Origin: Opitutaceae bacterium
GTDB lineage: Bacteria; Verrucomicrobiota; Verrucomicrobiia; Opitutales; Opitutaceae
Direction of reading: 5' to 3'
DNA: 64,000 nucleotides
Assembly (NCBI GenBank): GCA_014879845.1
Contig: JACSRI010000092.1
Span: 44 to 64,043, forward strand
Shown here: positions 15,847-62,803 of the stretch, piece after piece
Numbering within the stretch: the stretch's first letter is position 1
Layout of the letters: each line of letters begins with the position of its first letter
Position numbers and translations under genes: made by a program
The notes under the pieces: model-generated
Databases searched by the model: none
Told to the model about the DNA's origin: nothing
What the model saw: the letters and a program-made list of their open reading frames with translations, nothing else

Positions 15847-15932
15847 GGTGCCATGATGCCAGAGTACCGCGGGCGGGCGTATGGGCCGGTTGGGTGTGGG
15901 CGACTCAGGGAAAGCGTGTAGGAGGCCCGGAC

Positions 15933-31699: not shown

Positions 31700-31757
31700 C
31701 CGTCCCGATCCGTTGGGACGGCTGGCCCATGGAGCAGGCGGCTCCGGCCGCGGAGCC
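31700..31757 (-). terminator. Two tandem hairpins immediately 3' of GT-C paralog B (possible terminator or RNA-stability element; no U-tract)
   Basis: GGCTCCG-GCCG-CGGAGCC (31740-31757) abuts the TAG stop. CCGTCCC-GATCCGTT-GGGACGG (31700-31721) follows it. Confidence 0.35.
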
Positions 31758-33295: not shown

Positions 33296-33316
33296 GCGGG
33301 AGTGCGGACGGGCCAG

Positions 33317-34333: not shown

Positions 34334-34400
34334 GTGTGCTCGATTGTTGGGTGCGGTCGTGGTTTGCGCCCGTGGGCGAAGGCGCCTTGGCTCGCCGCCG

Positions 34401-35905: not shown

Positions 35906-36047
35906 GAGCCTGCTGGTTCGTGTTTGGCGTGCGGCCTGCAGGTCCGGTCACCGACCGGGCGCGACTGCGCGAGGGACTGCAGCCCCGGGTGGGGTCACCC
36001 GGCCTGCACCCCGAGGGCGAAACAGATACGCCTGCAAGCAGGCTCCT
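35904..36047. repeat. Nested inverted-repeat element in a convergent intergenic gap (REP-like; possible bidirectional terminator or structured RNA)
   Basis: The outer 11-bp perfect arms are AGGAGCCTGCT (35904-35914) and AGCAGGCTCCT (36037-36047). Inner hairpins are CCGGTC-ACC-GACCGG and CCGGGT-GGGGTC-ACCCGG. CGGCCTGCA and CCTGCAGG each occur twice. Confidence 0.6.
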
Positions 36048-36066
36048 GCAGGTTGCGGCAATCGTC

Positions 36067-36732
36067 TCACCCGACCAGCATGCCGTCCGCCAGGCGGATG
36101 ACGCGCGAGCCGTAGGCGGCGTTGGCGTCGGAGTGGGTGACCTGCACGATCGTCACGCCGTCCTCCGTATTCAGCGCCTTGAACAGCTCCATGATCTCGC
36201 GTCCCTGGTCGCTGTGCAGGTTGCCCGTCGGCTCGTCGGCGAGGATGACCGGCGGCTTGGCCACGAGCGCGCGCGCCACGCCGACGAGCTGTTGCTGGCC
36301 GCCGGAGAGTTGGTTCGGGTAGAGGTCGCGTTTGCCGACGATGTGGAAGCGGTCGAGCGTGTCGCACACGATGCTCTCGCGCTCCTTTTTCGGCACGTTG
36401 CGGTAGGTGAGCGGCACCTCGAGGTTCTCGTAGACGGTGAGGTCGTCGAGCAGGTGGTAGCTCTGGAAGACGAAGCCGAACGAGCGCTTGTGCAGCTCGA
36501 AGCGCTGCTTGACGTTGAGCTTGTGCACGGCGTCTTCGCCGCACCAATACTCGCCGTCCCAGCCCGAGTCGTGCATGCCCAGGATGTGCAGCAGCGTGGA
36601 CTTGCCCGAGCCGGACGGGCCCATGACGGAGACGAATTCACCCTGCTTGATCTCGAGCGAGATGTTGCGCAGCGCGAAGAACGGCCCGCCCTTGAGCGGG
36701 TAGACGCGGTTGACGGAGTGGAGGCGGAGCAT
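36067..36732 (-). CDS. ABC transporter ATP-binding protein (MacB/LolD-type), ATPase-B at the distal end of the permease array
   Basis: 221 aa. Walker A GPSGSGKST, signature LSGGQQQ, Walker B ILADEPTGNL, H-loop VTHS. Confidence 0.9.
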   Translation of the reverse strand: MLRLHSVNRVYPLKGGPFFALRNISLEIKQGEFVSVMGPSGSGKSTLLHILGMHDSGWDGEYWCGEDAVHKLNVKQRFELHKRSFGFVFQSYHLLDDLTVYENLEVPLTYRNVPKKERESIVCDTLDRFHIVGKRDLYPNQLSGGQQQLVGVARALVAKPPVILADEPTGNLHSDQGREIMELFKALNTEDGVTIVQVTHSDANAAYGSRVIRLADGMLVG

Positions 36733-36855
36733 GGTGAAGGAGAACGTGAGGGATGACGTTGGGAGTTGAAGTTGAAGTGAGGAGAACGAGCAGATGATGA
36801 GGTCGAGGTGGGAGTCGGATTAGAAGTGCGGGCTGCGGAATCGGGCGTCTCGTCT

Positions 36856-36918
36856 GAGCTTCAGCTTCAACTTCAACCTTCCACTTCAACTCGAGTGAGA
36901 CGCGTCGGCGTCTCACTC
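36856..36918 (-). repeat. Stop-codon-embedded hairpin + TCGAG + (TTGAAG)n element, copy 2
   Basis: An 11-bp perfect stem, GAGTGAGACGC-GTCG-GCGTCTCACTC (36893-36918). Its mRNA 5' arm starts with the last sense codon GAG and the TGA stop of the permease. In mRNA sense it is followed by TCGAG and hexamer repeats (plus strand GCTTCAGCTTCAACTTCAACCTTCCACTTCAAC). An inverted partial copy, GTTGAAGTTGAAG, lies at 36765-36777. Confidence 0.7.
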
Positions 36919-39369
36919 GCAGCGCAGCGCGGTGAGCGGGTCGACCTTGGTGGCGCGGCGGGCGGGCAGCCAGCTCGCGAGCAGCGCGCTCGCGGCCAGC
37001 ACGAGCGCGACGGCGATGAAGGTGAGGGGATCAAACGCGCTGATGCCGTAGACCATCGTGTTCATGGCGCGCGCGGCGAGGAGCGAGAAGAACAACCCGA
37101 AGCCGAGCCCCACGCCGACGACGTGCATCGATTGGACGATGATCATGCGCAACACGCTGGTGCGTTCGGCGCCGAGCGCGAGGCGGATCCCGATCTCGCG
37201 CGTGCGCTGCGTGACGTTCCACGAGACGACGCCGTAGATGCCGACGGCTGCGAGCGCGAGCGCCACCGCGGCGAACAGGCCGAGCAGCACGACGTTAAAC
37301 CGTTCGCCCCGCAGCGTGTCGCCGATCATGGCGTCGGCTGTGACGATGCGGCCGAGGGGCAGTGCGCGATCGAGCGAGGCGAGCAACGCACGCACTTCAG
37401 GCACGATCCGCTCGGGCGCGCCGGCCGTGCGCACGAGCAGGAACATCGAGCGGCGCAGGTCCGGATAGTCCCACGCCTGGTCAGCCGGGATGTAGACCGA
37501 GGGCGGTGGCTCGGCCTGCAGGCCAAAATGCCGCGTGCTCGGCACCACGCCCACGACCGTGGCCCACTGGAACTTGTCCAGTCCCGGTGGCAGCAGCCCC
37601 GGCGTGATGAGGTGCTCGGGCAGGCCGAGCATCACGCGCTTGCCGATCGGGTCGCCCTCCGGGAGGAATTTCGTCACCGCCGCCTCATTGAGGATGATGA
37701 CGGGCTGCGAGCCGGCGCGATCGGCGCTGGTGAAGGCGCGGCCGCGCGCGATGCGCAGACCCTGCGCGGTGAAGTAGTCGTCGAGCACGAGCGAGATCTG
37801 CACGCCCTCGACCTGGCTCAGGTCCGTGTAGGTGCGGTCCTCGGTGATGAGCGGCATGCCGATGCCGCCGGCGAACGGCGCGTTGTTGCTCGCAGAGGCC
37901 GAGGCGACGCCGGGGAGCGCGCGCAGGCGGTCGACCGCCTCCTGGAAAAACGCCATGGCCGACTGCGTCGACGGGTAACGCGCGGACGGCAGCTGCACCG
38001 GCACCATCACGAGCCGCTCGCGCACGAACCCCGGATCCACGGCCGTGAGCTGGCCGAAGCTGCGCAGGAGCAGGCCCGCCGCGATCAGCAGCGCGAGCGA
38101 GAGCGCGACCTCGGCGATGACGAGGCAGGCGCGCACGCGACCGGTCCTGCGGCTGGCCGTGCCGCGGCTGCTCTCCTGCAACGCAGGCTGCAGTGCGGCC
38201 CGCGAGCCCTCGAGCGCCGGAAACAGCGCGAACAGCAGCGTCGTGCCGAGCGTGACGGCGAGCGCGAAGAGCATGACCGGCCCGTTGACGTGGATCTGCG
38301 CCTCCGCCGGCACAGCGTCGCGCGGCAGGATGATGAGCAGTGCATCCAGACTCCAGGTACCGACGAGCAGTCCCGCGGCGCCGCCCAGCAGCGCGAGGGG
38401 CAGGCTCTCGAGCAGCGTCTGGCGCACGAGGTGTCCGCGGCTCGCGCCGATCGCCGCCCGCACGGCAAACTCGTGCTGCCGCGTGCTCATGCGCGCGAGC
38501 ATGAGGTTGGCGATGTTGGCGCAGGCGATGAGCAGCACGCCGGCCACGGCGCCGAGCAGCACCATGAGCGGGCGCCGGAACGGCCCGGTCACCGAGTCGC
38601 TCAGCCGCCGCACCGACACGCCGACATCCTTGTTCGAGTCCGGATACTGCTGCGCGATCTGGTCGGCGATGAGGTTGAGCTCCACGCTGACGTCGTCGTC
38701 GGTCTTGCCTGGCGCAGCTCGCGCCACGACCCAGGAATCGGCGCGCATCACGCGGCTGCGCATCAGGTCGGTGTCGGCCTGCAGGCCCACCGGCGTCCAC
38801 ACGTCGGCGGCCCAGAACTTGAAGCTCGGCGGCATCACGCCGATCACCGCGTAGGCGCGATCGTTGAGTGTGATCGAGCGCTGCAGGATGTCCGGGTCGG
38901 CCTGGAACTGGTTGACCCACGTCGCGTGGCTGAGCACCACGACCGGTGTCGCGGCGGGCTGGTCGTCCGCGGCCCCGAAGAAGCGGCCGAGCACGGGCTG
39001 GATGCCGAGCAGGGGCCAGATATCGGAGGAGACCGCGCCCTCGCGCACGGTGAGCGGCTCCGTGCCGCCGCTTAGCGTCGTGGAGTTGCCGTGGGCGTAG
39101 GCGAGGTGGCTCGTCGTCTGCGCCCGCGCTCGCCAGTCCAGGAAATCCGGGTACGTGACCGGCATGTTCCCCTGCTGCGTCCGCGGGGCCGAGCCGATGA
39201 AGAGGATCGCGTTGCCGTCGACGTAGGGGAACGGATGCAGGAGCACGGCATGCACCACGCTGAAGATCGCGGTGGTGGCACCCACGCCGAGGGCGAGCAC
39301 GAGGACCACCACGGCGGTGAAGCCGGGCGCCTTGGCGAGTTGTCGGAAGACGAAGGTGAGGGCGGACAT
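36913..39369 (-). CDS. ADOP-type ABC permease (duplicated FtsX / MacB periplasmic-domain architecture), array member 8 of 8
   Basis: From internal ATG 39369: MSALTFVFRQLAKAPGFTAVVVLVLALGVGATTAIFSVV... ANIANLMLARMSTRQHEFAVRAAIGASR... VTQRTREIGIRLALGAER... The C-terminus is KVDPLTALRCE. 818 aa. Confidence 0.9.
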   Translation of the reverse strand: MSALTFVFRQLAKAPGFTAVVVLVLALGVGATTAIFSVVHAVLLHPFPYVDGNAILFIGSAPRTQQGNMPVTYPDFLDWRARAQTTSHLAYAHGNSTTLSGGTEPLTVREGAVSSDIWPLLGIQPVLGRFFGAADDQPAATPVVVLSHATWVNQFQADPDILQRSITLNDRAYAVIGVMPPSFKFWAADVWTPVGLQADTDLMRSRVMRADSWVVARAAPGKTDDDVSVELNLIADQIAQQYPDSNKDVGVSVRRLSDSVTGPFRRPLMVLLGAVAGVLLIACANIANLMLARMSTRQHEFAVRAAIGASRGHLVRQTLLESLPLALLGGAAGLLVGTWSLDALLIILPRDAVPAEAQIHVNGPVMLFALAVTLGTTLLFALFPALEGSRAALQPALQESSRGTASRRTGRVRACLVIAEVALSLALLIAAGLLLRSFGQLTAVDPGFVRERLVMVPVQLPSARYPSTQSAMAFFQEAVDRLRALPGVASASASNNAPFAGGIGMPLITEDRTYTDLSQVEGVQISLVLDDYFTAQGLRIARGRAFTSADRAGSQPVIILNEAAVTKFLPEGDPIGKRVMLGLPEHLITPGLLPPGLDKFQWATVVGVVPSTRHFGLQAEPPPSVYIPADQAWDYPDLRRSMFLLVRTAGAPERIVPEVRALLASLDRALPLGRIVTADAMIGDTLRGERFNVVLLGLFAAVALALAAVGIYGVVSWNVTQRTREIGIRLALGAERTSVLRMIIVQSMHVVGVGLGFGLFFSLLAARAMNTMVYGISAFDPLTFIAVALVLAASALLASWLPARRATKVDPLTALRCE

Positions 39370-39479
39370 GGGGGGGAGGTGGACGAGGGGATGTGGGAGT
39401 GAGGGGTGAGGTTTTCTGGGGACTGGGTGTCTTGGTTCGGTCTTCTGTTCCTTATGCACTCAGTTCCTCATTTCCTTCC

Positions 39480-41990
39480 TCACTCCGCGCGCAGCGCCGT
39501 GAGCGGATCGACCTTCGTCGCGCGGCGTGCGGGTACGAGCGTGGCGATGAGGGAGACCACGACGATGAGCGCGGTCACGGTGCAGTAGGTAACGACGTCG
39601 AGCGGGCTGATGAGAACCAGGATATGGGTGAGCGGGCCCCGGGCCAGGAAGGCCGCGCCGAGGCAGAGGCCCATGCCGAGCACGAGGCCGATGCCGAGCT
39701 GCAGGCCGCCCTGGCGCAGGACGAGCCGAAGCACGTGCATACGTTCGGCGCCGAGCGCCATGCGCACGCCAAACTCCTGCTGGCGCTGATTCACGGAAAA
39801 ACTCATCACGCCGTAGAGACCAATGGAGGCGAGGGCCACCGCGACGGCACCGAAGATCGTGAACATGCGCGCGATGAGTTGGTTTTGCGCGAGGAACACC
39901 TCGATCGATTCGCGCGGGGTGGAGACGAAGTAGAGCGGAAGGTTCGGGTCGACGCGCTTGACGACGTCCTGCAGCGCCTGGGCGAGCGCTTCCGGTCGCT
40001 GGCCGCCGCGCGGCCGGACGATCGCCGTGCCGAACTGGAGGGCCACGGCTTCCTCGGTGGCTGGACCAAACGGCGTCGCGAAATACGGGATGTAGAAGCC
40101 CGAGCCATCGCTCCGCGCGTTGAACGGCCCCTGCATGCGTACGTCGCCCACCACGCCGATGATCACGCGCCACGGACCCGGTGCGGTGCCGTTGGCCTGG
40201 GTCGTGCGGAAGCGCCGGCCCAGGGGCGACTCGTTGCCGAAGTGCCGGCGCGCGAAGCGCGTGTTGACGATCGCGACCGGCTGGCGCTGGTCGGAGTCGT
40301 CGTCGGTGAAATCGCGTCCCTCGTGCACCGGTACGCGCAGCGTCGCGAAATAGCCGGGCGTCACGTTCTCGAACTGCGTCACCACGCGATCCTCGTCCTT
40401 CGCATAGGTGCGTCCCTCGATCTCCACGGGACCGGCTCCGGAGAAGACCATGCGGAAACGGTTGGTCAAGGCGACGGAGTCAAACTGCGGCGAGACCCGA
40501 AGCTCCCGCAGCAGGCGTTCGTAGAACACCTGGCGCTCCTTCGAGCTGGGATAGTCCCCCTCCATCAAACCCATGCGCCCGGTCAGCACGGCCGAGGTGT
40601 CGTAGCCGTGATCGATGGTCTGCTGGCGCACGATCGACTGGGTGAAGAGGAGCGCGCCGGTGAGGAGCAGGCAGGTCATCACGATCTGGCCGACGACGAG
40701 CGCGCGTGTCATCAGGTTGACGGCACGGCTGGTGTTCCCGCGGCCGGCGTCCTTCAGTGCCTCGACGTTGTTCACGCGCGAGGCCATCCAGGCCGGCAGC
40801 AAGCCCGAGCCGATGGTCGCGAGCACGGTCGCTGCCACCACGAGGGCGAGCACCCGGCCGTCGATGGTGAAGTGCATCCACGCCGGAATCGGGTTCTGCT
40901 GCGTGTGCGTGGCCGCGTCGAGCAGGCCGGTCGCCCAGTAGGCCAGTGCCACCCCGAGCCCCGCGCCGATCGTGGCGAGGAGCAGGCTTTCCGTGAGCAT
41001 CTGGCGCAGCAGACGCACACGCGTCGCCCCGAGCGACGAGCGCACCGCCAGCTCCCGCGTGCGCAGCGCGGCGCGCGCGAACTGCATGTTCATCACATTG
41101 CTGCAGCCGATGAGCAGCACGCCCACGCAGAACACGAGCATGAGCATGAGGAGAAACGTGAGGTTGCCGCCGGTGAACGCGCCGATCAGTGGCCGCACGT
41201 AACCCATCGTGAACTGCCCGTTCGTCTCCGGATACGTCTCGGCGAAGTGCTTGGCGAATCCCGTGATCTCGGCCTGCGCCTGATCGATGGATACGCCCGG
41301 CTTGAGCGTGGCGATGATCGAGATGCCGTTGATCCCGGGATCCTTGCGGTCCTTCACCGGAAACTCCGTGTTCACCGGGAGCCACAGCTGCTCGTTGGCC
41401 GGGAAGGAGAACTTCGGCGGCATCACGCCGACGACCGTGCCGGTGCGGCCGTTGACTCGGACGACCTTGCCGAGCACCCCGGGATCGGCGCCGAAATCCG
41501 AGCGCCAGAGCGAGTCGCTCAGCAGCACGGCCTTGTCCACGCCGGGCCGATCCTCCTCGGGCAGGAAGTCCCGCCCGAGCACTGGTGCGACACCGAGCGC
41601 GCGGAAGAAATCGTGCGTGACGTACCCGCCCTGCAGGCGCTTCGGATTGCCGTCGTTCGTCAGGTTGATGGTCGAGCCGTTGAGGTAGCCGACGAAAAAC
41701 TCGAACGACTGCTGCCGCTCGCGCATGTCCACGAAGTCCGCCGTCGTGATCTGGCCGTTGAAGTTGGCCGGCGAGAAGTTCGTCGGGCTCACCAGGTTGA
41801 CATCCACGAGCCGGTCGGCCGCACGGAAGTCGAAGGCGTGCAGCAGCACGCCGTTGACCACGGCGAACTGCGTGGTGACGGCGCAGATGCCGACCGCGAG
41901 CACAGCGACGGCGAGGGCGCAAAACGCCTTCTCCTTGATCAGGACACGAAGTCCGAAACGTACATCCTGGCGGAATGTCTCGAGCAACAT
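39480..41990 (-). CDS. ADOP-type ABC permease, array member 7 of 8
   Basis: From internal ATG 41990: MLLETFRQDVRFGLRVLIKEKAFCALAVAVLAVGICAVTT... FARAALRTRELAVRSSLGATR... VNQRQQEFGVRMALGAER... KVDPLTALRAE. 836 aa. Confidence 0.9.
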   Translation of the reverse strand: MLLETFRQDVRFGLRVLIKEKAFCALAVAVLAVGICAVTTQFAVVNGVLLHAFDFRAADRLVDVNLVSPTNFSPANFNGQITTADFVDMRERQQSFEFFVGYLNGSTINLTNDGNPKRLQGGYVTHDFFRALGVAPVLGRDFLPEEDRPGVDKAVLLSDSLWRSDFGADPGVLGKVVRVNGRTGTVVGVMPPKFSFPANEQLWLPVNTEFPVKDRKDPGINGISIIATLKPGVSIDQAQAEITGFAKHFAETYPETNGQFTMGYVRPLIGAFTGGNLTFLLMLMLVFCVGVLLIGCSNVMNMQFARAALRTRELAVRSSLGATRVRLLRQMLTESLLLATIGAGLGVALAYWATGLLDAATHTQQNPIPAWMHFTIDGRVLALVVAATVLATIGSGLLPAWMASRVNNVEALKDAGRGNTSRAVNLMTRALVVGQIVMTCLLLTGALLFTQSIVRQQTIDHGYDTSAVLTGRMGLMEGDYPSSKERQVFYERLLRELRVSPQFDSVALTNRFRMVFSGAGPVEIEGRTYAKDEDRVVTQFENVTPGYFATLRVPVHEGRDFTDDDSDQRQPVAIVNTRFARRHFGNESPLGRRFRTTQANGTAPGPWRVIIGVVGDVRMQGPFNARSDGSGFYIPYFATPFGPATEEAVALQFGTAIVRPRGGQRPEALAQALQDVVKRVDPNLPLYFVSTPRESIEVFLAQNQLIARMFTIFGAVAVALASIGLYGVMSFSVNQRQQEFGVRMALGAERMHVLRLVLRQGGLQLGIGLVLGMGLCLGAAFLARGPLTHILVLISPLDVVTYCTVTALIVVVSLIATLVPARRATKVDPLTALRAE

Positions 41991-42161
41991 GGGGGGATGG
42001 GCCGAGGGTTGGATGGAGGTGGACCGGGCGAAGGTGTAAGTGAGGAGAGGTCGGAGTGATGGTTTGCCTGCGCGAGAGGCGGGAGGAGGTGGTGCCGGTG
42101 ATCGGAGTGTTGCTTTTGGTTCGTACCTCTCGCCTAGGGCCCATCGCCTCTCGCCTGCCAT

Positions 42162-44612
42162 TCACTCCGCCCGCAGTGCGACGAGCGGGTTGACCTGCGT
42201 GGCGCGGCGCGCGGGGATCCAGCAGGCGAGCAGCGCGATGCCGAACAACAGTGCGGAGACGCCGATCACCGCGGGGGCGTCAAACGCCGGCAGGCCGTAG
42301 AGAATCTTCGACAGCACCAGGCCGAGCAGCGCGGACATCACGAGCCCCATGCCGATGCCGATCAGCGTCAGGCGCATGCCCTCGCGCAACATCGCGCGCA
42401 CGACATCGCCGCCTTGCGCGCCGATGGCCATGCGGATGCCGATCTCGCGCGTGCGCTGGGTCACGCCGAAGGCGACGACGGCGTAGAGGCCCATGATGGC
42501 GAGCAGCAGCGCGATGACCCCCTGCACGCCGGCCATGAGCGATCCCATGCGCAGCGGCATGAAGGCGAAGGCGCTCTTGCCCATGAGCTCGTTCATCGTG
42601 GTCACTTCGAAGGCGGGAAGGTGCGGGTCGATCTCGCGCAGCGCCGCGCGCAGCGACGAGGTGAGCGCGGCCGGGTCGCCCTGCGTGCGGACCATGATCG
42701 TGAGCGGGGCCGCGGCTTCCTGCGTGAGCGGCACATAGGCATAGGGGCGGGGCGGCTCGCCGACCATCACGTACTTGGCCGTCGGCGTGAGGCCCACGAC
42801 CTCGATCCACGGACCCTGGCGCCACGGCTGGAAGCGGCGGCCGATCGCGTCCTGGCCGGGCCACACGGCGTCGGCGAAGGCCTGGTTGATCACGGCGACG
42901 CGCGGCGTATCCGCCGTGTCGCTCGCGGCGATCATGCGACCGCGGTCGAGGCGCAGGCCGAGCGTCTGGAAAAACTCCGGCGTGATCTGTGCGTAGCCGA
43001 TCGCGAGCTCGTCGTTGGCGAGCGGGACGCCGGGGTTTTCCGGGATGGCGTTGCGCGCACCGATGAAGTAGCTGAACGGCACGGTCGACGTCAGCGCGGC
43101 CGACTCGACGCCGGGCAGGGCCTGTACCCGTTCGATGAGCACGCGGCGGAACTGCTCGGCCCGAGCCTCGTCGTAGCCCTGCAGCTTGAGGTCGAACGAG
43201 GCCATGAGCAGACCGTCGGTCTTGAAGCCGAGGTCGAGGCCTTGGATGCGTGACAGGCTGCGCGCGAAGAGGCCGGCACTGCACAGCACGACGAGGGAGA
43301 GCGCGACCTGGCCGATCACGAACATGTTGCGCATGCGGTGGTGCCGGGCGCCCTGCGGGCCACCGGGGCCGCCCTTGAGATTGTCGACCAGGTCGACGCG
43401 CGAGGCGCGCAGGGCCGGCAGCAGGCCGCTGCCGAGCGCGGCCGCCGCGGAGATGACGATGATGAAGGCATGGTCGCGCCAGCCCGTGGTGAAGTCCGTC
43501 CTCGCGGGCATGTCGCCCGAGGGCGCGAACTGCATGAAGACCGCGCCGATCCAGTCCGAAAGATACCACGCGACCACGCCGGCGATCGCCGCCAGGACGA
43601 GCGACTCGGTCAACAGCTGCCGCACGATCGTCCAGCGCGTCGCGCCGAGCGCGACGCGCACGGTCAGCTCCTTGCGCCGCGCCGCGGTGCGGGCGAGCAT
43701 CAGGTTCGAGACATTCGCGCAGGCGATGACGAGCACGAGCGTCACCATCGCGCCGAACAGCGCCATGATCACGGGCATGAAGTCCGAGAAGATCGGGTCC
43801 GGCCGCGCCTGGCTCTCGCGCATCACCACCGAGGTGACCTCCTTGTGGTCGTCCGGGTATTCCTGCGAGAGGCGGCTGGTCACCACCGCGGCTTCGGCGC
43901 GTGCCGCGTCGAGCGTGGCTCCCGGCGCGAGCAGGCCCATGACCTTGAACGCGCTGACGCCTCGCCAGGTGAGCATCTCGGCGCCCTGGTCGCGCATCAC
44001 GCCGCTGGCGCTGACCGGGACGAAGCCTGCGACAGACATGCTGTAGGAAAAGGCCTGGAACTCCGGCCGCATCACGCCGACCACGGTGAAGGGCTGTCCG
44101 TTGATCATGACGGCCCGTCCGACGATCTCGGGGTCGGCGCCGAAGCGCTCGCGCCAGGCCTTGTCCGTGAGCACGGTGACGAGCGGCGCGCCGGGCGCCT
44201 CGCCGTCACTCGGAAGCAGGGTGCGGCCGAGTTGGGCCTGCAGGCCGAAGGTCTGGAAGGCGTTCGGCGTCACCATCTCGAACCACGCGCGCTCGGGCGA
44301 CTTGCCCTCGGCGCTGAGGTGCGCCGCGCTGGGCAGGAGGGCGAACATGCCCTGCACCGTCTTCATGCTCTCGCGCAGGTCGCGAAAGTCCGGAAACGAG
44401 ATCTGGTGCGGCATCTTCATGGCCGCGCTGCGCTGCGCGAGCAGCACGACGCGGTCAGCATGGGGCACGTCCATCGGCCGCAGCATGAACTGGCTGGCGA
44501 TGCCGAAGAGCATCGTGTTGACAGCGAGCCCGAAGGCGAGGGTGAGCACCACGACGGCGGAGAAGCCCGGGGACTTGAAGATCTGACGGATGGCGAAGCG
44601 CAGGGAGGACAT
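42162..44612 (-). CDS. ADOP-type ABC permease, array member 6 of 8
   Basis: From internal ATG 44612: MSSLRFAIRQIFKSPGFSAVVVLTLAFGLAVNT... LARTAARRKELTVRVALGATR... VTQRTREIGIRMAIGAQ... QVNPLVALRAE. 816 aa. Confidence 0.9.
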   Translation of the reverse strand: MSSLRFAIRQIFKSPGFSAVVVLTLAFGLAVNTMLFGIASQFMLRPMDVPHADRVVLLAQRSAAMKMPHQISFPDFRDLRESMKTVQGMFALLPSAAHLSAEGKSPERAWFEMVTPNAFQTFGLQAQLGRTLLPSDGEAPGAPLVTVLTDKAWRERFGADPEIVGRAVMINGQPFTVVGVMRPEFQAFSYSMSVAGFVPVSASGVMRDQGAEMLTWRGVSAFKVMGLLAPGATLDAARAEAAVVTSRLSQEYPDDHKEVTSVVMRESQARPDPIFSDFMPVIMALFGAMVTLVLVIACANVSNLMLARTAARRKELTVRVALGATRWTIVRQLLTESLVLAAIAGVVAWYLSDWIGAVFMQFAPSGDMPARTDFTTGWRDHAFIIVISAAAALGSGLLPALRASRVDLVDNLKGGPGGPQGARHHRMRNMFVIGQVALSLVVLCSAGLFARSLSRIQGLDLGFKTDGLLMASFDLKLQGYDEARAEQFRRVLIERVQALPGVESAALTSTVPFSYFIGARNAIPENPGVPLANDELAIGYAQITPEFFQTLGLRLDRGRMIAASDTADTPRVAVINQAFADAVWPGQDAIGRRFQPWRQGPWIEVVGLTPTAKYVMVGEPPRPYAYVPLTQEAAAPLTIMVRTQGDPAALTSSLRAALREIDPHLPAFEVTTMNELMGKSAFAFMPLRMGSLMAGVQGVIALLLAIMGLYAVVAFGVTQRTREIGIRMAIGAQGGDVVRAMLREGMRLTLIGIGMGLVMSALLGLVLSKILYGLPAFDAPAVIGVSALLFGIALLACWIPARRATQVNPLVALRAE

Positions 44613-44751
44613 GGGTGAAAGTGTGGGAGGGGGTGAGGGATTGAGGGGGACAGGATGGAGGCGCACTCGTTGAGGCAGCGGGGAAGGAGTGGATGGGTCT
44701 TCTGGGTTTGGACTTCTGTCCGTTATCCACTCAGTCCCGCACTCCCGCATC

Positions 44752-47169: not shown

Positions 47170-47183
47170 GGAGGTTATTCAGT

Positions 47184-49619: not shown

Positions 49620-49657
49620 CTTTGGGCGGCGATGAGTCGGAGTTGATCGAGTCGCAG

Positions 49658-52138: not shown

Positions 52139-52142
52139 TGGA

Positions 52143-52170
52143 GATTGCGGATTGCCGAATGCCGAATGCG
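52143..52170 (-). repeat. Four tandem heptamers in an intercistronic leader (plus strand GATTGCG GATTGCC GAATGCC GAATGCG)
   Basis: Read directly from the sequence. It lies in the 52-nt spacer between two permease genes. In mRNA sense it reads CGCATTC GGCATTC GGCAATC CGCAATC, followed by TCCA and ATG. Confidence 0.75.
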
Positions 52171-52190
52171 GAGGGGTGGCGAAGACCGGG

Positions 52191-54614: not shown

Positions 54615-54687
54615 CGGACGCGGAAGTTCAGGTCTAGAGTTTGAGTTCGGGTGTCGGAGCGCGCCTCGCCGTCGAGTTTGGTCGGAT

Positions 54688-54733
54688 CTTCAACTTCAAC
54701 TTCAACTCGAGTGACACGCGAGACGGGTCACTC
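54688..54733 (-). repeat. Stop-codon-embedded hairpin + TCGAG + (TTGAAG)3 element, copy 1
   Basis: Stem GAGTGAC-ACGCGAGACGG-GTCACTC (54709-54733) includes the GAG-TGA end of the permease gene. On the plus strand it is preceded by CTTCAACTTCAACTTCAAC (54688-54706) and TCGAG. Same layout as 36856-36918. Confidence 0.7.
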
Positions 54734-57262
54734 GCTGCGCAGCGCAGAGTTCGGATCGACGCGCGTGGCGCGGCGGGCGGGGATCCAGCAGGCAAACAGG
54801 GCGGCTGCGCCGAGCAGCACCGTGGCGACGAGCAGCGCGAGCGGGTCGGTCGGGCTCACGCGGTAGAGCATGCTGGCGAGGACCTGGCCGACGAGCAGCG
54901 CGAGGACGAGGCCCACGACGGTCGAGACGAGGATCTGCAGCGCGCCCTGGCGCATGATCAGGCGGAAGACATCGCCGCGCCGCGCCCCGAGCGCCATGCG
55001 GATGCCGATCTCGCGGGTGCGGCGGGCGACCGTGTAGGCCTTCACGCCGTAGACACCGACCGTGGCCAGCACGAGCGCGATGCCACCGAACACGCCGAAC
55101 ATGAGCGCGCCGAGCCGCACGATCCAGAGACTGAGATTGGTATCCACGATGTCGGCGAGCCGTTCGAAGCGCAGCAGCGGCACCTCAGGGTCGATGGAGC
55201 GGAGCTTCTGGCGCAGGCTGCCGGAGGCGGCGAGCACGGCCGCTGGGCTTTCGTTGGCGTAGCGCACGCACAGGAAGGCATTCGGGCTGTAGTTCTGCGC
55301 GAGCGGCACGTAGAGGCGATAGCTCGCCTCCTCCTCGTCCTGGAGATCCTGCTGATGGCGGTTCGTGATGCCGACGATCGTCATCTCCGCGGGCGAGCCG
55401 TCGGTCGGCGGCTGGGTATAGCGGATCTGGCGACCGAGCGCGTCCTCGCCGGGGAAGAGTTTTTCGGCAAGCGTCTCGTCGATGATTGCCATGGCGGGTG
55501 AGTCCTTCTCGCGGGCCTCGATCTCGGAGAAATCGCGGCCACGCAGCAGTCGGGCGCCGAGCGCGTCGAGGTATCCGGGCGTGATCGACGCGATCACGGC
55601 ACCGAAACCCGGGGCCGGCTCATCCGGCCCGCGTGTCGTCGGGGCGTTGGCCGGCATGATGCGGGCGCCGTTCGAGATGTTGCCGTAGGGAATCAGCGTC
55701 GTCAGTCCGGCCGCCTTCACGCCGGGCAGCGCGCGCGCGCCGGCGGCCATGTCGGTCAGTCGACGGGTGGCCTCCGGTCGGGGCGTGTTGATCATGGAGT
55801 AGTCGATCGAGGCAACCATCACGCCGGCCGGCCGGAAGCCCGTCTCCATGCCGCTGGCCTTGAGCGCACCGCGGAAGAACAGGGTGGAGGCGAAGACGAG
55901 CACGAGCGAGAGCGCCATCTGCGTCATCACGAGCAGGTGACGACCGGCGAAGAAGCGGTTGAACCGGCCGATCGCGGCGGGGTCGCCGGCCTGGGCCTTG
56001 AGATCGTGCACGAGGTCGGCGCGCGCTGCGCGCCAGGCCGGGCCGACGCTGAACACGAGCGTGGCGAGCACGCAGAAGCCGAAGGTCACGGCGATCACCG
56101 TCAAGTCGGGCTGCAGGCGTGCGCTGAGCGAGAAGCTGATGGCCGCGAGCTTGGTTTGGAACGACGCCTCGAGGAGCGTGTTGGTCCAATCGCTGAGCAC
56201 GAGCCCGACGATTCCACCGGTCACCGCGAGCACGAGGCCTTCGACCGTGAGCTGCCGCACGATATGCCAGCGCGTCGCGCCGACGGCGAGCCGCACGGCG
56301 ATCTCGCGGGCGCGGGCCGAGCCGCGCGCGAGCAGGAGGTTGGCGAGATTGAGACTCGCGATGAGCAGGACGATGGCGGCCATGCCGCACAGGAGCAGGC
56401 CCACGAACGTGACGGGCCCGTCGTCGGTCGGCGCGGTGCTGACGCTCAGGCGCGAAGGCGGCGTGATCTGGAGCGCCCGCGGCTCGGCCTCGGCCGGTGC
56501 GACCGCGTTGAGGCGCGTATCGAGCACGGGGAGACGCGCACGGGCCGTCTCGATCGTGAACCCGGGCTGCATGCGGGCCTTGAGCGTGAGGGAGAAATTC
56601 TGCGGGTGGTTCAGGTCGGTCAGGCTCTTGTCCGCGGTCGGGTCGGCGGAGATGCCGAACATGCCGAGCGGCAGCCAGACCTCGGGCGAGAACAGCACGC
56701 TCACGCCGGCGAAGCCCTCGGGCGCCACGCCGATCACCGTGTGTGGGTGGCCGTTCACGCGCAACGTGCTGCCGACAAGATGGGGCGAGCGACCGGTCTT
56801 CTGCCAGTAGCCATGGCTGACAACGACGACCGGGATGTTCGCGTTCGGCACGCCTTCCTCGGGGGTGAAGAACCGTCCGGCGGCGGGTGTGGCGCCGGAG
56901 AACTGGAAGAAATTGTCCGTGACGAAGAACGTCAGCGCCCGGCGCATCGAGTCGCCCTCGCCGATGCCGGCCAGCGTGAAGGCGATCCCGGTCACCTCGG
57001 CGAACACCTCGGTGTCCTCGCGCAACGCGGTGTATTCACGGTACGAGAACGGGCGATAGTCGCGCTCCGAGGCCTGGCGCGCGGTGAAGACCGAGACGAC
57101 GCGATCGGGCTCGCGCGCGATCGTGGGGCGCAGGAGCAGGCCGTTGACGATCGAGAAGATCGCGGAGTTCACGCCGAGGGCGAGGGCCAGCGTGATCACG
57201 GCCACGGCGGTGAATCCGGGTGACTTGAGCAGGTGGCGAAAGGCGGAGCGGAGGTCGGACAT
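54728..57262 (-). CDS. ADOP-type ABC permease, array member 1 of 8
   Basis: 844 aa: MSDLRSAFRHLLKSPGFTAVAVITLALALGVNS... LARGSARAREIAVRLAVGATR... VARRTREIGIRMALGAR... RVDPNSALRSE. Confidence 0.9.
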   Translation of the reverse strand: MSDLRSAFRHLLKSPGFTAVAVITLALALGVNSAIFSIVNGLLLRPTIAREPDRVVSVFTARQASERDYRPFSYREYTALREDTEVFAEVTGIAFTLAGIGEGDSMRRALTFFVTDNFFQFSGATPAAGRFFTPEEGVPNANIPVVVVSHGYWQKTGRSPHLVGSTLRVNGHPHTVIGVAPEGFAGVSVLFSPEVWLPLGMFGISADPTADKSLTDLNHPQNFSLTLKARMQPGFTIETARARLPVLDTRLNAVAPAEAEPRALQITPPSRLSVSTAPTDDGPVTFVGLLLCGMAAIVLLIASLNLANLLLARGSARAREIAVRLAVGATRWHIVRQLTVEGLVLAVTGGIVGLVLSDWTNTLLEASFQTKLAAISFSLSARLQPDLTVIAVTFGFCVLATLVFSVGPAWRAARADLVHDLKAQAGDPAAIGRFNRFFAGRHLLVMTQMALSLVLVFASTLFFRGALKASGMETGFRPAGVMVASIDYSMINTPRPEATRRLTDMAAGARALPGVKAAGLTTLIPYGNISNGARIMPANAPTTRGPDEPAPGFGAVIASITPGYLDALGARLLRGRDFSEIEAREKDSPAMAIIDETLAEKLFPGEDALGRQIRYTQPPTDGSPAEMTIVGITNRHQQDLQDEEEASYRLYVPLAQNYSPNAFLCVRYANESPAAVLAASGSLRQKLRSIDPEVPLLRFERLADIVDTNLSLWIVRLGALMFGVFGGIALVLATVGVYGVKAYTVARRTREIGIRMALGARRGDVFRLIMRQGALQILVSTVVGLVLALLVGQVLASMLYRVSPTDPLALLVATVLLGAAALFACWIPARRATRVDPNSALRSE

Positions 57263-57272
57263 CGGCAGGAGG

Positions 57273-57300
57273 TTTTCGATTTGAGATTCTCGATCTTCGA
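57273..57300 (-). repeat. Four tandem heptamers in the leader of the first permease (plus strand TTTTCGA TTTGAGA TTCTCGA TCTTCGA)
   Basis: Read directly from the sequence. It lies in the 67-nt spacer between the TolC-like gene stop (57330) and the permease start (57262). Confidence 0.7.
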
Positions 57301-57329
57301 TTGGCCGCGTGCGCCCTCGCTGGAGATCG

Positions 57330-58897
57330 CTACGGGGCTGTCTGCGTACCGGACGCCACCTCGAGCCGGTGGCGCTCGAGGGTGCGGCCGAGCTGGCGGT
57401 CGTATTCGGCGATGGCGTTGCGGTAGGCGACGATGGCGCGGGCCTCGCGCCCCTCGTCGTTGGCGAGGATCTCCTGCTGCTGCAGCACGAAGAACGTGTT
57501 GCCCGTGCCGGCGCGCAGGCGCTTGAGCTCGGCGGAGAGCGTGCGCTCGCTCAGCTCGCGCGAGGCGCGGGTGGAGAGCACACGCTGCCAGGTGGTCCGG
57601 ATGTTGTCGGCCGCGCTGCCCACGGCGACCACGATGTCCTGCTCGAGGCTGTTCAGTGCGATTTCGGCGCGCTCGCGGGCGAGCCGCGCGCTGCGGTAGC
57701 GGGCGCGCTCGGCGTAGGAGGTGATCGGGATGGTGACGGACACGCCGGCCGAGTAGGCGGGATGGTCGCGGTCCTTCACCGAGTCGCGGCTGTCCTTGTA
57801 GTCATTGGCCACGCCTGCGTAGCCGTAGCTTCCATACACGTCGACGGCGGGCAGGAGCTGGTTGCGGTAAAGGCGGTAGTCGAGGTCGTTGCGCTGGAGC
57901 GCGAGGCGCGCCTGCTGGTAGTCGGGTCGGCGCTGCAGGGCGACGTGGATGTCGGCCTGGACGTCGGTCTGGAACTCGCCGGGCACGACCACGTCGGGCA
58001 GCACGATCGTGCGCGAGAGGAGCGCGGCGGATTTCTCGTCGCTGATCAGCTGCTTGAGCAGGTTGGCGGCGTCACGCTCGGCGTTCTCGGCAAGGAGCAC
58101 GCCCTCCTCGCGCGTGGCCACGCGGGCCTGGGCGGAGAGCACGTCGAAGTCCGACATCGCGCCGACGCGAAAGCGCTCCTGGTTCTCGCGGTGGAGGCTG
58201 GCGGCGTTCTCGCGCAGTCGGCGTGCGATGGCGAGGTTGGCGCGGGCGAAGAGCAGCTCGTCGTAGGCGTAGACCACGCGCGTGACCGTGTTGATCAGCG
58301 TGGCCTGGAACTCCCACTCCGAGATGGTGCGGTCGGTCTTGGCGATGCGGATGGCCGTGGACGTGGACGCGCCGCCGAAATCGCGCAGCAGCGGCAGGCT
58401 GCCGCTCACGCCGGAGAATGCATTCCAGTAGTCGAAATCCGGCCGCATCGGATCGTTGAACGCGCCGCGCGGGTTGTTCGTCGAGGCGCTGAGACGATAG
58501 CTGAGGCCGAGCGGCAACTCGCCCTCGAGTTTGCCGTCGTAGATCGCATTGTCGTAGATCGAGGGCGGGAGGTCCTCCCCCGTCTGCTCATCCGTGCCCG
58601 AGGGCTGGTTCTCGCGCGACTTCGTGTAGGAAAACACGAGCCGCGGGTCGAAACGACTGTAAGCGAGCGACACGCCCGTGTCGGCGATGGCGCGCGTGCG
58701 CTGCTCGACCTGGATCGTGTAGTTCTTTTCCAACGCCTGGCGCACGGCCTCCGCCAGCGTGAGCGGGGCGGAGTCGGGCGCCGGGGCGGTGGCGGGTTCG
58801 TTCGACACCGCGGGCGCCGCGGCCGCTTCGTCGGCCGCCGAGAGCGGCGAGACGAACGCGAGCGCGACGCACGCGAGGACAGCTGGGGCGCGGTGAA

Positions 58898-58901
<4 letters not shown>
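57330..58901 (-). CDS. TolC-family outer-membrane efflux protein
   Basis: 523 aa. Signal MIHRAPAVLACVALAFVSPLSA, LTLAEAVRQALEKNYTIQV, and two OEP-type repeats (...RLRENAASLHRENQERFRVGAMSDFDVLSAQ... and ...RTLSAELKRLRAGTGNTFFVLQQQ...). It overlaps the upstream ATPase stop by 4 nt. Confidence 0.85.
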
Positions 58902-59611
<710 letters not shown>

Positions 59612-59623
59612 GGCGGGGATGGT

Positions 59624-59658
59624 GAATTGCGGATTGTGGAGTGCGGATTGTGGGTGGG
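59624..59658 (-). repeat. Heptamer-periodic tract in the ATPase-A leader (plus strand GAATTGC GGATTGT GGAGTGC GGATTGT GGGTGGG)
   Basis: Read directly from the sequence. It belongs to the same GGATTGY unit family as 52143-52170. It lies in the 65-nt spacer after the adaptor gene. Confidence 0.7.
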
Positions 59659-59676
59659 TTGGGAGAGAGGCGGGGG

Positions 59677-60930
59677 TTAGCGCAGGCGGACGCGCTCGTT
59701 TTCCGACCACTGCTGCATGTCGGAGAGGATCACGCGGTCGCCGGGGGTGAGGCCGGCGAGGATCTCGATCGTATTCACGGAGGCCCGACCGAGCTTGACC
59801 TGGATGCGCTCGGCCATGTCGCCGTCGGGCGTGAGCCGGTAGATGCCGACCGTGGTCTGCTCCTGGCCGAAGGCCGGGCGGCCGACGAAGAGCACGTCGG
59901 CGAGGCGGTCGAGCTCGATCACGCCGTCGACGCTCAGGTCGGGGCGCGCGCCCTTGGGCAACTCGCCGTTGAGCATGACGTCGACCGTGACCGTACCGTT
60001 TTGCACGGCGGGATCGATGCGCGAGACGCGGCCGGCGACCACGCCGTTGCGCGTGTCGATCGTGGCGTCCTGGCCGATGAGGATATCCTTGGCCTGCGTC
60101 TCGGCGATGCGCACTTCGGCCTTGAGGCGGGCGGGATCGGCGACGCGGGCGAGATTCGTGCCCGGCTGCACCTGGGCGCCGACCTCGACCGGGAGCACCT
60201 GGAGCACGCCATGCACGCCGGCGCGGACCTTGAGGGCATCGTATTCCTCGCGACGGAGCTTGGCCTGGGCGCTGAGGCGGTTGACCTCCGCGCGTTTCAC
60301 CGAGAGGCGCGGGTCGATCGACTCCTTCGTGAACTCGAAGCGCTTCTTCTCGATCTCGTAGCGCGTGGCGGCCTCCTCGGCCGTGACGACGGCGCGGCGT
60401 AGTTCGAGGGCGGAGACGAGGCCCTCGCGGAAAAGCTCGTCGTTGACCTCGGCCTGGAGTTTCGAGGTCTCGAAGTTGGACTTGGCACTGGCCAGGGTGG
60501 ACTCCATCGCGAGCAGGCCGCTCTCAAGCTCGATGCGCAGGTTGTTGAGCTCGGCCGTGGCGGCCTCGAGCTGCGACTCGGCGGCGGTGGCCGCCTGCTC
60601 GACGTCGGGATTCATCATCTCGAGGATGACCGAGTCGGGCGTCACGAGCGCGCCGGGGCGCAGGATGATGCGATCGACGCGGGCGGAGGTGCGGGCGGCG
60701 ATCCAGCGGATCTCCTCGGGCACGAGCGTGCCGAGGCCGCGGACCTGGCGGACCATCGGACCGCGCTTCACCGTGTCGACCCAGACCAGATTGCGGTCGA
60801 CGACCGGAGCGGCGGGCCCGAGGCGGGCGAGGAAGATCGTGATGCCGGCGAGGACCGCAACGACGACGATGGCGAGAAGGATGCGTTTGCGGAGCTTGGC
60901 TTTGGCCTGGGACGGGCGCGGGATATCCAT
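59677..60930 (-). CDS. Periplasmic adaptor (membrane fusion protein, MacA/HlyD family)
   Basis: From ATG 60930 (MDIPRPSQAKAKLRKRILLAIVVVAVLAGITIFLA). The ATG at 60960 lies inside the sigma-54 promoter, so I rejected it. Features: a coiled-coil hairpin region, a lipoyl/beta-barrel segment ...LKVRAGVHGVLQVLPVEVGAQVQPGTNLARVADP..., and GRVSRIDPAVQNGTVTVDV. Confidence 0.85.
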   Translation of the reverse strand: MDIPRPSQAKAKLRKRILLAIVVVAVLAGITIFLARLGPAAPVVDRNLVWVDTVKRGPMVRQVRGLGTLVPEEIRWIAARTSARVDRIILRPGALVTPDSVILEMMNPDVEQAATAAESQLEAATAELNNLRIELESGLLAMESTLASAKSNFETSKLQAEVNDELFREGLVSALELRRAVVTAEEAATRYEIEKKRFEFTKESIDPRLSVKRAEVNRLSAQAKLRREEYDALKVRAGVHGVLQVLPVEVGAQVQPGTNLARVADPARLKAEVRIAETQAKDILIGQDATIDTRNGVVAGRVSRIDPAVQNGTVTVDVMLNGELPKGARPDLSVDGVIELDRLADVLFVGRPAFGQEQTTVGIYRLTPDGDMAERIQVKLGRASVNTIEILAGLTPGDRVILSDMQQWSENERVRLR

Positions 60931-60956: not shown

Positions 60957-60970
60957 GCAATGGCCGTGCC
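60957..60970 (-). promoter_or_regulatory. Sigma-54 (-24/-12) promoter for the efflux operon
   Basis: The minus strand reads cGGCACGGCCATTGCg. This gives GGCACG-N4-TTGC with exactly the consensus TGGCACG-N4-TTGCW spacing. The TTGC ends 26 nt upstream of the adaptor ATG. A sigma-54-dependent regulator is encoded directly upstream. Confidence 0.65.
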
Positions 60971-61054
60971 GAGTTGCAGCGAGTTGTCTAAGTCGCTGGT
61001 TGAAAGCGGAATTCCTTGTTTTCGCGATTTTGGGAGTTTGTCCCGGCATCGGTG

Positions 61055-61101
61055 CCGCACGCGGGTGCGGGACGGTGCAATCCCACAAATGGGACGGTGC
61101 G
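61055..61101. promoter_or_regulatory. Candidate enhancer (UAS) sites for the NtrC-family regulator
   Basis: A palindrome CCGCAC-GCGG-GTGCGG (61055-61070), plus the direct repeat GGGACGGTGC at 61069-61078 and 61091-61100 (22-nt spacing). They lie about 90-140 bp upstream of the -24/-12 element, with an AT-richer tract (61000-61045) in between. Confidence 0.35.
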
Positions 61102-61319
61102 AAACGCGGCTTGCGACGTGCGCTGGGCGCAGTGGTCGGATGGTGGAGCACGCGGTGCAGGCTGCGGCGGCAGGCAGTCCGCTCTCTTGGGGTAGGGCGA
61201 GGCCTCGGGCCGATCCGTGCGGCGGACGCGAACGGGTTCGGAGATCCGGGAGCCGATGTCGGAAAGCGGAGGCCTGAAATGCTCACCTCAGCCGTCTGGC
61301 CGCTGCTGACGCGGCTCGA

Positions 61320-61337
61320 CCGGAGGCCCCGCCCTAC
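61320..61337 (-). repeat. GTAGGGCG-family REP-like copy 3' of the kinase gene
   Basis: The minus strand reads TGA-CGAGTTTCCA-GTAGGGCGGGGCCTCCGG, i.e. 10 nt after the stop. This is the same placement as after the xylanase gene. Confidence 0.5.
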
Positions 61338-61347
61338 TGGAAACTCG

Positions 61348-62721: not shown

Positions 62722-62787
62722 GGATGAACACGGATGGACACGGATACGGAGTGGTCTGGATCCGTGTGCATCCGTGTCTATCCGTGG
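62718..62787. repeat. Long imperfect hairpin built from 10-nt CACGGAT-containing units, between the regulator and kinase genes
   Basis: Left arm CCACGGATGAACACGGATGGACACGGATACGGA (62718-62750). Right arm TCTGGATCCGTGTGCATCCGTGTCTATCCGTGG (62755-62787). The arms are complementary apart from about 5 mismatches. The left end overlaps the kinase GTG start. Confidence 0.75.
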
Positions 62788-62803
62788 TTGAAAGCGCAGG
62801 ACA

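Follow-up and report, generated by a model that had tools for sequence, protein, structure and literature searches.

Eight tandem ADOP-type permease genes with an adaptor, two ABC ATPases and a TolC-like channel: a candidate modular efflux operon in an Opitutaceae bacterium

The window analyzed here is a stretch of 64,000 nt of contig JACSRI010000092.1 from an Opitutaceae bacterium (a soil/water verrucomicrobium), with ~69% G+C across its whole length. It contains a string of twelve consecutive genes on the minus strand, eight of which encode double-FtsX permeases of the ADOP (acidobacterial duplicated orphan permease) family. The string starts with a MacA/HlyD-type adaptor (59677-60930, 417 aa), an ATP-binding cassette (ABC) ATPase, ATPase-A (58898-59611, 237 aa), and a TolC-like outer-membrane factor (57330-58901, 523 aa). 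These are followed by the ADOP genes, given here with their scores against the family model TIGR03434: P1 (54728-57262, 844 aa, 738 bits), P2 (52191-54614, 807 aa, 846 bits), P3 (49658-52138, 826 aa, 860 bits), P4 (47184-49619, 811 aa, 792 bits), P5 (44752-47169, 805 aa, 795 bits), P6 (42162-44612, 816 aa, 796 bits), P7 (39480-41990, 836 aa, 779 bits) and P8 (36913-39369, 818 aa, 866 bits). A second ATPase, ATPase-B (36067-36732, 221 aa), closes the string. An original prediction, made from the letters and an open reading frame (ORF) list, had placed eight permease ORFs at these positions with these lengths. The ORF list and translation from its start codons confirmed them, and none of the twelve genes has an internal stop. 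The tight packing on one strand was also measured as claimed: ATPase-A and TolC overlap by 4 nt and the remaining spacers are 65, 67, 113, 52, 38, 14, 139, 171, 110 and 180 nt. No additional ADOP, ATPase, adaptor or TolC genes were found elsewhere in the window. Related loci, referred to below by L numbers, were collected by searches anchored on TolC (22 loci), on P8 and on both ATPases, and their ADOPs were typed with a hidden Markov model built from the eight paralogs. The gene arrangement is real, well-delimited and phylogenetically conserved.

All eight permeases match TIGR03434 over the full length, at 738-866 bits with a cutoff of 622.3, from profile positions 1-5 to 803. Because the alignments begin at profile positions 1-5, the shorter start codons of P4, P6, P7 and P8 are supported. 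Pfam finds two MacB_PCD and two FtsX stretches in each, and the N-terminal, coupling-loop and C-terminal ALR[ACS]E motifs are found in the eight ADOPs, so the architecture and motifs read from the translations in the original prediction hold in every case. Each ADOP has eight hydropathy peaks, corresponding to transmembrane (TM) helices, with no linking helices between the two halves. An AlphaFold2 model of P8, computed from a 51-sequence alignment, has a mean pLDDT (predicted local distance difference test) of 82.8 and a pTM (predicted template modelling score) of 0.70. It consists of two helical bundles, two mixed α/β periplasmic domains and a short cytoplasmic linker between TM4 and TM5. 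Among solved structures the model ranks Escherichia coli YbbP first (E = 1.5e-17), followed by MacB, Streptococcus pneumoniae Spr0695, LolE/LolC and BceB; a sequence search of the PDB found no ADOP-type structure. Sequence and model together show each ADOP as a predicted single-chain pseudo-dimer of two MacB-type units, with eight TM helices, two periplasmic cores and two coupling loops.

The pairwise identity of the paralogs in an all-vs-all comparison is 29-49%, the top pair being P2/P4 (49%). These are therefore old paralogs with no recent amplification, as had been proposed. The divergence is uneven along the chain. The mean pairwise identity among the eight is 81% in the C-terminal tail, 57% in the coupling loop between TM6 and TM7, 52% in the one between TM2 and TM3 and 48% in the N-terminus with TM1, and drops to 28% and 27% in periplasmic domains 1 and 2. 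When orthologs are compared, the periplasmic domains are about as conserved as the membrane domains, which argues that in each paralog its own periplasmic domain is under constraint.

The family name reflects the original definition of TIGR03434, namely an acidobacterial lineage of orphan permeases with no adjacent ABC ATPase gene. Neither part fits this locus. The gene string includes two PF00005 ATPase genes, together with the adaptor and TolC, which bears out the earlier claim that the array is not orphan; and the closest relatives of every gene are from Opitutaceae, in the Verrucomicrobiota. The ADOP family is far wider than its name suggests, since it counts 130,719 cluster representatives (50% clustering, E <= 1e-30), and there are 28-33 ADOP copies in Dyadobacter. 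Many representatives are 870-906 aa long and match the profile from about residue 80, indicating an N-terminal extension of ~80 residues that is absent from the window's eight ADOPs. An Acidisarcina plasmid carries an orphan pair of PadR and ADOP, and this PadR-linked ADOP (L029 7749-10445) is of the longer, N-terminally extended type. In two Gemmatirosa plasmids there are ~41 ADOP-like places, with no ATPase in the 42 kb examined of plasmid 2.

ATPase-A and ATPase-B both match PF00005. DarD is the best NCBIfam match of both, and the best matches of ATPase-A also include the MacB nucleotide-binding domain (NBD) and LolD. Among solved structures, ATPase-B is nearest to MJ0796, Spr0694, the MacB NBD, YtrE, LolD and BceA, all type VII NBDs. 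The Walker A, Q-loop, LSGGQ, Walker B and H-switch motifs are intact in both proteins, which are predicted to be MacB/LolD-clade NBDs with a catalytically competent motif set. The two are 45% identical and differ in the D-loop: ATPase-A has the canonical Asp (EPTGNLDS), and in ATPase-B this Asp is replaced by His (EPTGNLHS). In the loci scanned, including L005-L024, all ATPase-B-type copies have NLHS and ATPase-A-type copies NLDS. ATPase-A homologs are 81-97% identical (>120 clusters, the named ones from Opitutaceae) and ATPase-B orthologs 77-97% (>120 clusters). This 77-97% contrasts with 56-66% for P8 orthologs (one at 92%, in L024) across Opitutaceae, and with 41-50% for most TolC relatives (one at 75%). 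A tblastn search of the ADOP-rich Gemmatirosa and Acidisarcina plasmids for an ATPase-B ortholog found only generic MacB-type NBDs at <=50% identity.

The adaptor matches TIGR01730 with 114 bits (cutoff 94.9), with DarC as the second match, and contains the Pfam domains HlyD_3 and HlyD_D23. It has a single N-terminal TM anchor at residues 17-35. By its sequence it is a MacA/HlyD-like periplasmic membrane fusion protein. The TolC-like protein has two PF02321 OEP repeats, at 147 bits with a cutoff of 22, and an N-terminal signal-peptide-like segment; its score against TIGR01844, 97.5 bits, is below the cutoff of that model, as is its score against the NodT NCBIfam subfamily model. Its relatives form 22 loci in Opitutaceae. 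The profile matches therefore agree with the earlier assignment of the flanking genes as a MacA/HlyD adaptor, an ABC ATPase, a probable TolC-family channel and a second ABC ATPase. Neither ATPase has another FtsX-type permease in cis within the window.

The closest relatives, which are 92-97% identical at single genes, are all Opitutaceae. A contig from a metagenome-assembled genome (MAG), JAEWQP010000022.1 (L001 + L025), has the order regulator, kinase, adaptor, ATPase-A, TolC, P3, P4, P5, P6 and ATPase-B, that is, the same layout with four permease cassettes. A similar four-cassette run precedes ATPase-B in L027/L028, in which the P5 and P6 slots are 49% and 53% identical to the window's, yet ATPase-B is 96% identical. 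The closest relative, L024, has at least five cassettes (P4-like, P3, P5, P6, P8, then ATPase-B), with P7 missing and the order of P4 and P3 swapped. L032 has regulator, kinase, adaptor, ATPase-A and TolC followed by at least four ADOP genes, and in L017 three ADOPs stand between adaptor-ATPase-A and TolC. At least nine loci show another order, an ADOP array, a sigma-54 promoter and then ATPase-B-TolC, sometimes with a few unrelated genes in between. Altogether ADOPs are linked with the ATPase, adaptor or TolC in ~16 of the 22 TolC-anchored loci, in three gene orders. Linkage that recurs through rearrangements is a classical signature of functional coupling.

The cassettes themselves have different histories. 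P3 has orthologs at 91% in L024, 78% in L001/L025 and 73% in L027; P4 orthologs are 65-76% and P5 orthologs 77-78% identical; P6 orthologs are at 96% in L024, 70% in L025 and 53% in L027. P1 is absent in the four-cassette relatives, and P2 has an ortholog of 61% in L012. P7 is missing from L024, L025 and L027 and has 54-58% orthologs in other arrays (L010, L015, L023). P1, P2, P7 and P8 are additions to a four-gene core. Since P7 and P8 belong to old orthogroups of other arrays, cassettes move between arrays.

Other genes beside these arrays were also considered. The 400-470-aa ORFs next to ATPase-B/TolC in L006, L007, L009, L013 and L021 were candidates for single-FtsX permeases or diverged adaptors and were rejected: those of L006 are periplasmic-binding-protein-like proteins and methyltransferases, those of L009 have no Pfam match and look soluble, and those of L007, L013 and L021 are homologs of these or unrelated. 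A conserved soluble protein of ~415 aa without a Pfam match lies between ADOP and ATPase-B-TolC in Cephaloticoccus MAGs (L009 5253-7787; L013 3922-5160). L009 has two tandem copies of it (71% identity), and it is 86% identical between the two MAGs.

Upstream of the adaptor, also on the minus strand, is a regulatory module (60957-64000) that the original prediction had overlooked and that includes a two-component system. The sensor histidine kinase (61348-62721) has a HATPase_c domain and an AtoS-like match over residues 50-456. It has two N-terminal TM helices (hydropathy peaks at ~17-40 and ~45-70) joined by a loop of only ~6-8 residues, so the kinase lacks a periplasmic sensor domain. The response regulator (62804-64000), whose N-terminus is cut by the window end, is of the sigma-54-dependent NtrC type. 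It has Sigma54_activat (215 bits), AAA_lid_14, HTH_8 and partial Response_reg domains in Pfam and NCBIfam matches of the NtrC, AtoC and ZraR types. Its ortholog occupies the equivalent position in L001, L032 and L033.

The sequence CGGCACGGCCATTGC (60957-60971, minus strand), with -24 GG and -12 GC elements, is a predicted sigma-54-type promoter starting ~40 nt upstream of the adaptor ATG. It is the sole match in the window to TGGCAC-N5-TTGC with <=1 mismatch; the motif count is not above chance, as ~4 would be expected. The same three loci, which are independent Opitutaceae loci, have GGCAC-N5-xTGC 35-45 nt upstream of the adaptor ATG. Thus it is the position and the conservation across loci, not the count, that make the predicted promoter credible. 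Further upstream, the palindrome TCCCATTTGTGGGA (61081-61094, minus strand) may be the upstream activator site used by the response regulator. The window, L001, L032 and L033 all have this TCCCA-N4-TGGGA form at 148-169 nt before the adaptor ATG, with conserved arms and a varying spacer. The promoter distance, the adjacent activator gene and the conserved upstream site all fit a predicted sigma-54 operon under an enhancer-binding protein. Similar elements are found at other efflux genes of the family: a perfect TGGCAC-N5-TTGCA stands 20-30 nt upstream of related TolC genes in L002-L006, L008 and L020 (~9830-9945), and in L014, L018 and L022 (~8715-8885) it stands before a short signal-peptide-like ORF, which is followed by ATPase-B-TolC. 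From these occurrences, outer-membrane efflux components of Opitutaceae appear to form a sigma-54 regulon.

A consensus scan found no minus-strand terminator-like sites in the gaps between the genes. It found a terminator-like hairpin (36031-36052, minus strand) 15 nt past the ATPase-B stop, which likely marks the end of the unit; this hairpin is weak, with a poor T-run and a folding no better than that of shuffled sequence. None of the spacers, folded in a search for attenuators or processing hairpins, clearly beats shuffled sequence, the best z-score being -2.0 in the P5-P6 gap. A sigma-70 promoter scan of the region, which is uninformative for this phylum, gave nothing. The promoters of ATPase-B provide a comparison. 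A sigma-54-like promoter precedes ATPase-B where it is detached from ADOPs, either solitary in L034 or as ATPase-B-TolC in L026, L014, L018 and L022, whereas ATPase-B lacks such an element where it closes an ADOP array, as in the window, L024, L025 and L027. This contrast argues for read-through from the array into ATPase-B.

The spacers have shared elements of their own. The P1-P2 (54615-54727) and P8-ATPase-B (36733-36912) spacers contain, on the minus strand, a common element CACTCGAGTTGAAGT(T/G)GAAG..., and the latter also has complementary CTTCAACTTCAAC repeats downstream of it. The CACTCGAGTTGAAGT element is kept in the P8-ATPase-B spacer of L024 (~12460-12630), and the predicted folds are no stabler than those of shuffled sequences. 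The P5-P6 (44613-44751) and P7-P8 (39370-39479) spacers have in common ACTGAGTG.ATAA.GGA.CAGAAG just past the stop codon of the preceding gene. Every spacer ends in a leader that is rich in C and poor in purines and lacks a Shine-Dalgarno-like sequence.

One explanation for such a locus is genomic accident: the ADOPs would pile up as independently expressed tandem units because the site, flanked by two efflux-related modules, is permissive, with the ATPases serving permeases elsewhere. It would account for modules that are found apart in relatives, for an array content that turns over fast between close relatives and for spacers as long as 180 nt. It has to contend with the twelve genes on one strand with no terminator-like site between them, with an ATPase-B that lacks its own sigma-54 promoter exactly where it stands behind an ADOP array, and with the linkage in ~16 of the 22 TolC-anchored loci in three gene orders. 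Furthermore, the ATPases are of the MacB/LolD clade, which pairs with FtsX-type permeases, and the ADOPs are the only such permeases nearby. An accident is considered quite improbable.

The preferred reading, held with moderate confidence, is a MacAB-TolC-like (type VII ABC) efflux chassis in which the permease position is filled by any of the eight ADOPs, under sigma-54/two-component control. The kinase and the NtrC-type regulator would activate the sigma-54 promoter before the adaptor gene, and transcription would proceed from the adaptor gene through ATPase-A, TolC and P1-P8 to ATPase-B. Because in YbbAP two YbbA are bound on the fused YbbP, each ADOP is expected to bind two ATPase subunits; by this analogy to YbbA2-YbbP, it would receive its two nucleotide-binding subunits in trans, either as an A/B heterodimer or as a homodimer, and the membrane-anchored adaptor and TolC-like channel would complete the duct. 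The eight ADOPs would be alternative substrate-selecting modules of one chassis, since they keep the cytoplasmic ATPase-contact elements and their periplasmic domains are very different, and could expel different amphiphilic or periplasmic compounds by mechanotransmission. The parts of this mechanism differ in strength. It is likely that the ADOPs use ATPase-A/ATPase-B. That all eight also share the adaptor and TolC is close to evenly balanced, leaning slightly to the doubtful side. The original prediction had proposed interchangeable permeases on a shared scaffold. The comparisons lend support to this, with four, at least five or eight cassettes, three gene orders and no rival permease in cis; the linkage it implied is not universal, as Lacunisphaera limnophila illustrates.

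Several observations weigh against the shared chassis. L. limnophila has five ADOP genes, including orthologs of P7 and P8, and neither an ATPase nor an adaptor or TolC gene lies within 5-10 kb of them. In strain EW11, no ADOP or TolC gene adjoins the run of regulator, kinase, adaptor and ATPase-A. The ATPase-B of L034 (10001-10666) is solitary, among unrelated genes and 83 kb from the L032 array on the same contig (ena:ERZ25039533:contig_37510). These separate occurrences show that encoding in trans is also possible for the parts; separate modules fit trans-acting parts but equally allow other partners. The adaptor matches solved MacA weakly (E = 5e-5), and a pseudo-asymmetric single-chain permease would have to seat a hexameric MacA-like adaptor. 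The pattern of conserved cytoplasmic and variable periplasmic parts is typical of the whole FtsX/MacB superfamily and is no proof alone of a shared ATPase. Finally, the spacers of 110-180 nt could hold promoters that the sigma-70 scan does not recognize. As an observation in its own right, the solitary ATPase-B of L034 is an "orphan ATPase" counterpart to the "orphan permeases".

A second explanation keeps the ATPases and drops the duct. The ADOPs would be stand-alone type VII machines, of which at most a subset couples to the adaptor. Like LolCDE or YbbAP-TesA, they might take lipids, lipoproteins or hydrophobic compounds out of the outer leaflet, or they might act in Bce-like target protection or flux sensing, signalling to the sensor-less histidine kinase. 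BceS-type kinases rely on their type VII transporter, and the predicted intramembrane-sensing topology of the kinase resembles theirs. YbbP, the best structural match, works without TolC, and LolE/C and BceB come next; orphan ADOP arrays without a nearby adaptor or TolC exist, and unrelated genes part the ADOP array from ATPase-B-TolC in several loci. Against these stand the adaptor and TolC of the unit, which have no other inner-membrane partner in cis, the three ADOPs of L017 between adaptor-ATPase-A and TolC, and the order adaptor-ATPase-A-TolC-ADOP that is repeated in L001 and L032. In addition, an ADOP has two MacB-like periplasmic cores and 8 TM helices, and BceB has a single large domain (PMC5985334) and 10 TM helices. 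On balance stand-alone machines are rather unlikely.

The shared-chassis reading can be extended to the family. ATPase-A and ATPase-B might be the long-missing ADOP motors, working as an asymmetric heterodimer on two non-equivalent coupling helices. One such pair, with the adaptor and TolC, would serve many cassettes, in cis or in trans, that are gained, lost and shuffled between arrays, and the sensor-less kinase, reading permease activity in the manner of Bce-type flux sensing, would drive the sigma-54 promoter. ATPase-A and ATPase-B are both ~80% or more conserved, and there is probably one of each per genome. The heterodimer is inferred from sequence: the two ATPases are co-conserved, they co-occur in the window, in L001/L025 and in L032/L034, and their D-loops are asymmetric. 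Taken as a whole this extended proposal is doubtful.

The surroundings of the string are in part conserved. Downstream, the synteny with topoisomerase IV, GH10 and GH127 genes agrees with that of the relatives. Two overlapping bPH_2 (bacterial PH domain) genes on the plus strand, 34101-34946 and 34943-35905, face the end of the operon in convergent orientation; L024 has a bPH_2 gene in the equivalent position, and L025 and L027 have none there. The space from the bPH_2 genes to topoisomerase IV holds a 780-aa ORF (31757-34099, minus strand). It has no Pfam or NCBIfam match and may be either specific to the lineage or a spurious ORF of high-GC DNA. Signalling genes are numerous in the upstream half of the window, on the plus strand (9635-15406, 15894-18422 and 8144-9490). 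Among them are a 1923-aa ORF for a hybrid histidine kinase/receiver and a multi-PAS kinase; the GH127 and GH10 glycoside hydrolases sit beside them.

Literature searches on TIGR03434 and on MacB/FtsX/Acidobacteria paralogs gave no result, and a search on tandem FtsX-like permeases with TolC gave nothing relevant; no assigned function or energizing partner for ADOPs was found in the literature searched. The operon and its relatives name a candidate motor (the two ATPase orthogroups), a candidate duct (the adaptor and TolC-like channel) and a candidate regulator for the ADOP family, by which the "orphan permease" question becomes directly testable. Some soil bacteria hold tens of ADOP copies per genome. 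If the shared-chassis model is true, the arrays would represent a modular widening of efflux specificity, with a bearing on environmental antimicrobial tolerance and on the evolution of ABC permease/ATPase specificity.

Among known systems, MacAB-TolC of E. coli and Acinetobacter baumannii (PDB 5nik) shares with the window the FtsX-type TM bundle with a MacB periplasmic core, the MacB/LolD-clade NBD and the membrane-anchored adaptor; their genes lie together with that of a channel which, in the window, is probably of the TolC family. The differences are also clear. The permease here is a single-chain 8-TM tandem, whereas MacB is a homodimer of 4-TM subunits; the NBDs here are separate polypeptides of two kinds, whereas the MacB NBD is fused N-terminally; and here there are eight permeases per adaptor/TolC, with sigma-54 and two-component control. 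With an unfused NBD, no 4-TM homodimer and eight permeases per adaptor, the window system is not a strict member of MacAB-TolC. In YbbAP-TesA of E. coli (PDB 9ge6/9ge7), two YbbA are present per fused YbbP, each on its own coupling helix (PMC12646458). YbbP is likewise a fused pseudo-symmetric double MacB-type permease with two periplasmic domains, two coupling helices and a separate ATPase, and is the best fold match of P8; the 2:1 ratio of YbbAP is probable in ADOP. It differs in having 10 TM helices with a linking pair (PMC12646458) where ADOP has 8, in a sequence identity of 14-15%, in its partner, the periplasmic hydrolase TesA with no adaptor or TolC, and in having one permease gene and one ATPase species.

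DarBCD, the exporter of the darobactin gene cluster, is described as a tripartite trans-envelope system of permease, adaptor and ATPase (PMC8442675), and was compared through the NCBIfam models NF038008, NF038010 and NF038007, the DarB model having 777 positions. The likeness lies in a permease, an adaptor and a free ATPase, with DarD and DarC among the best ATPase and adaptor matches. All the window proteins compared score far below the equivalog cutoffs (ATPases 232-250 bits vs 375, adaptor 85 vs 450, ADOPs <=28 vs 700). DarBCD has one permease, and its genes belong to a cluster for peptide biosynthesis that includes a radical SAM enzyme. A scan of window ORFs found no biosynthetic genes and no radical SAM or peptide precursor gene among those covered. 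A darobactin-like set on the Gloeobacter morelensis plasmid pGMOR1 (L030 4008-10391) consists of an adaptor, a small ORF, a radical SAM gene, an ABC ATPase and a double-FtsX permease; genes for a cache-domain protein and a response regulator come next.

ADOP clusters have been reported before. Psychroflexus torquis has a 42-kb ADOP cluster in genomic island 43, with ATP-binding and other transporter proteins (Feng et al. 2014, PMC3914696). Its ADOP paralogs are given as ten in the text and eight in the figure legend, the proteins are abundant, and a role in efflux was suggested (PMC3914696). This cluster differs in belonging to the Bacteroidota and in lying on an island with transposases, and the paper is without a partner assignment, regulation or comparative analysis (PMC3914696). 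A 2018 review of the MacB family lists fused architectures solely of the 10-TM kind, with ADOP not mentioned (PMC5985334). The earlier statement that no described system with such a layout was known is therefore overstated, the precedents being the P. torquis cluster (PMC3914696), DarBCD (PMC8442675) and the stoichiometry of YbbAP (PMC12646458). The orphan ADOPs of Acidobacteriota and Gemmatimonadota are of the same family and architecture, but stand alone or behind a PadR regulator with no ATPase. Unlike these, the ADOPs of the window are embedded in a complete efflux gene set.

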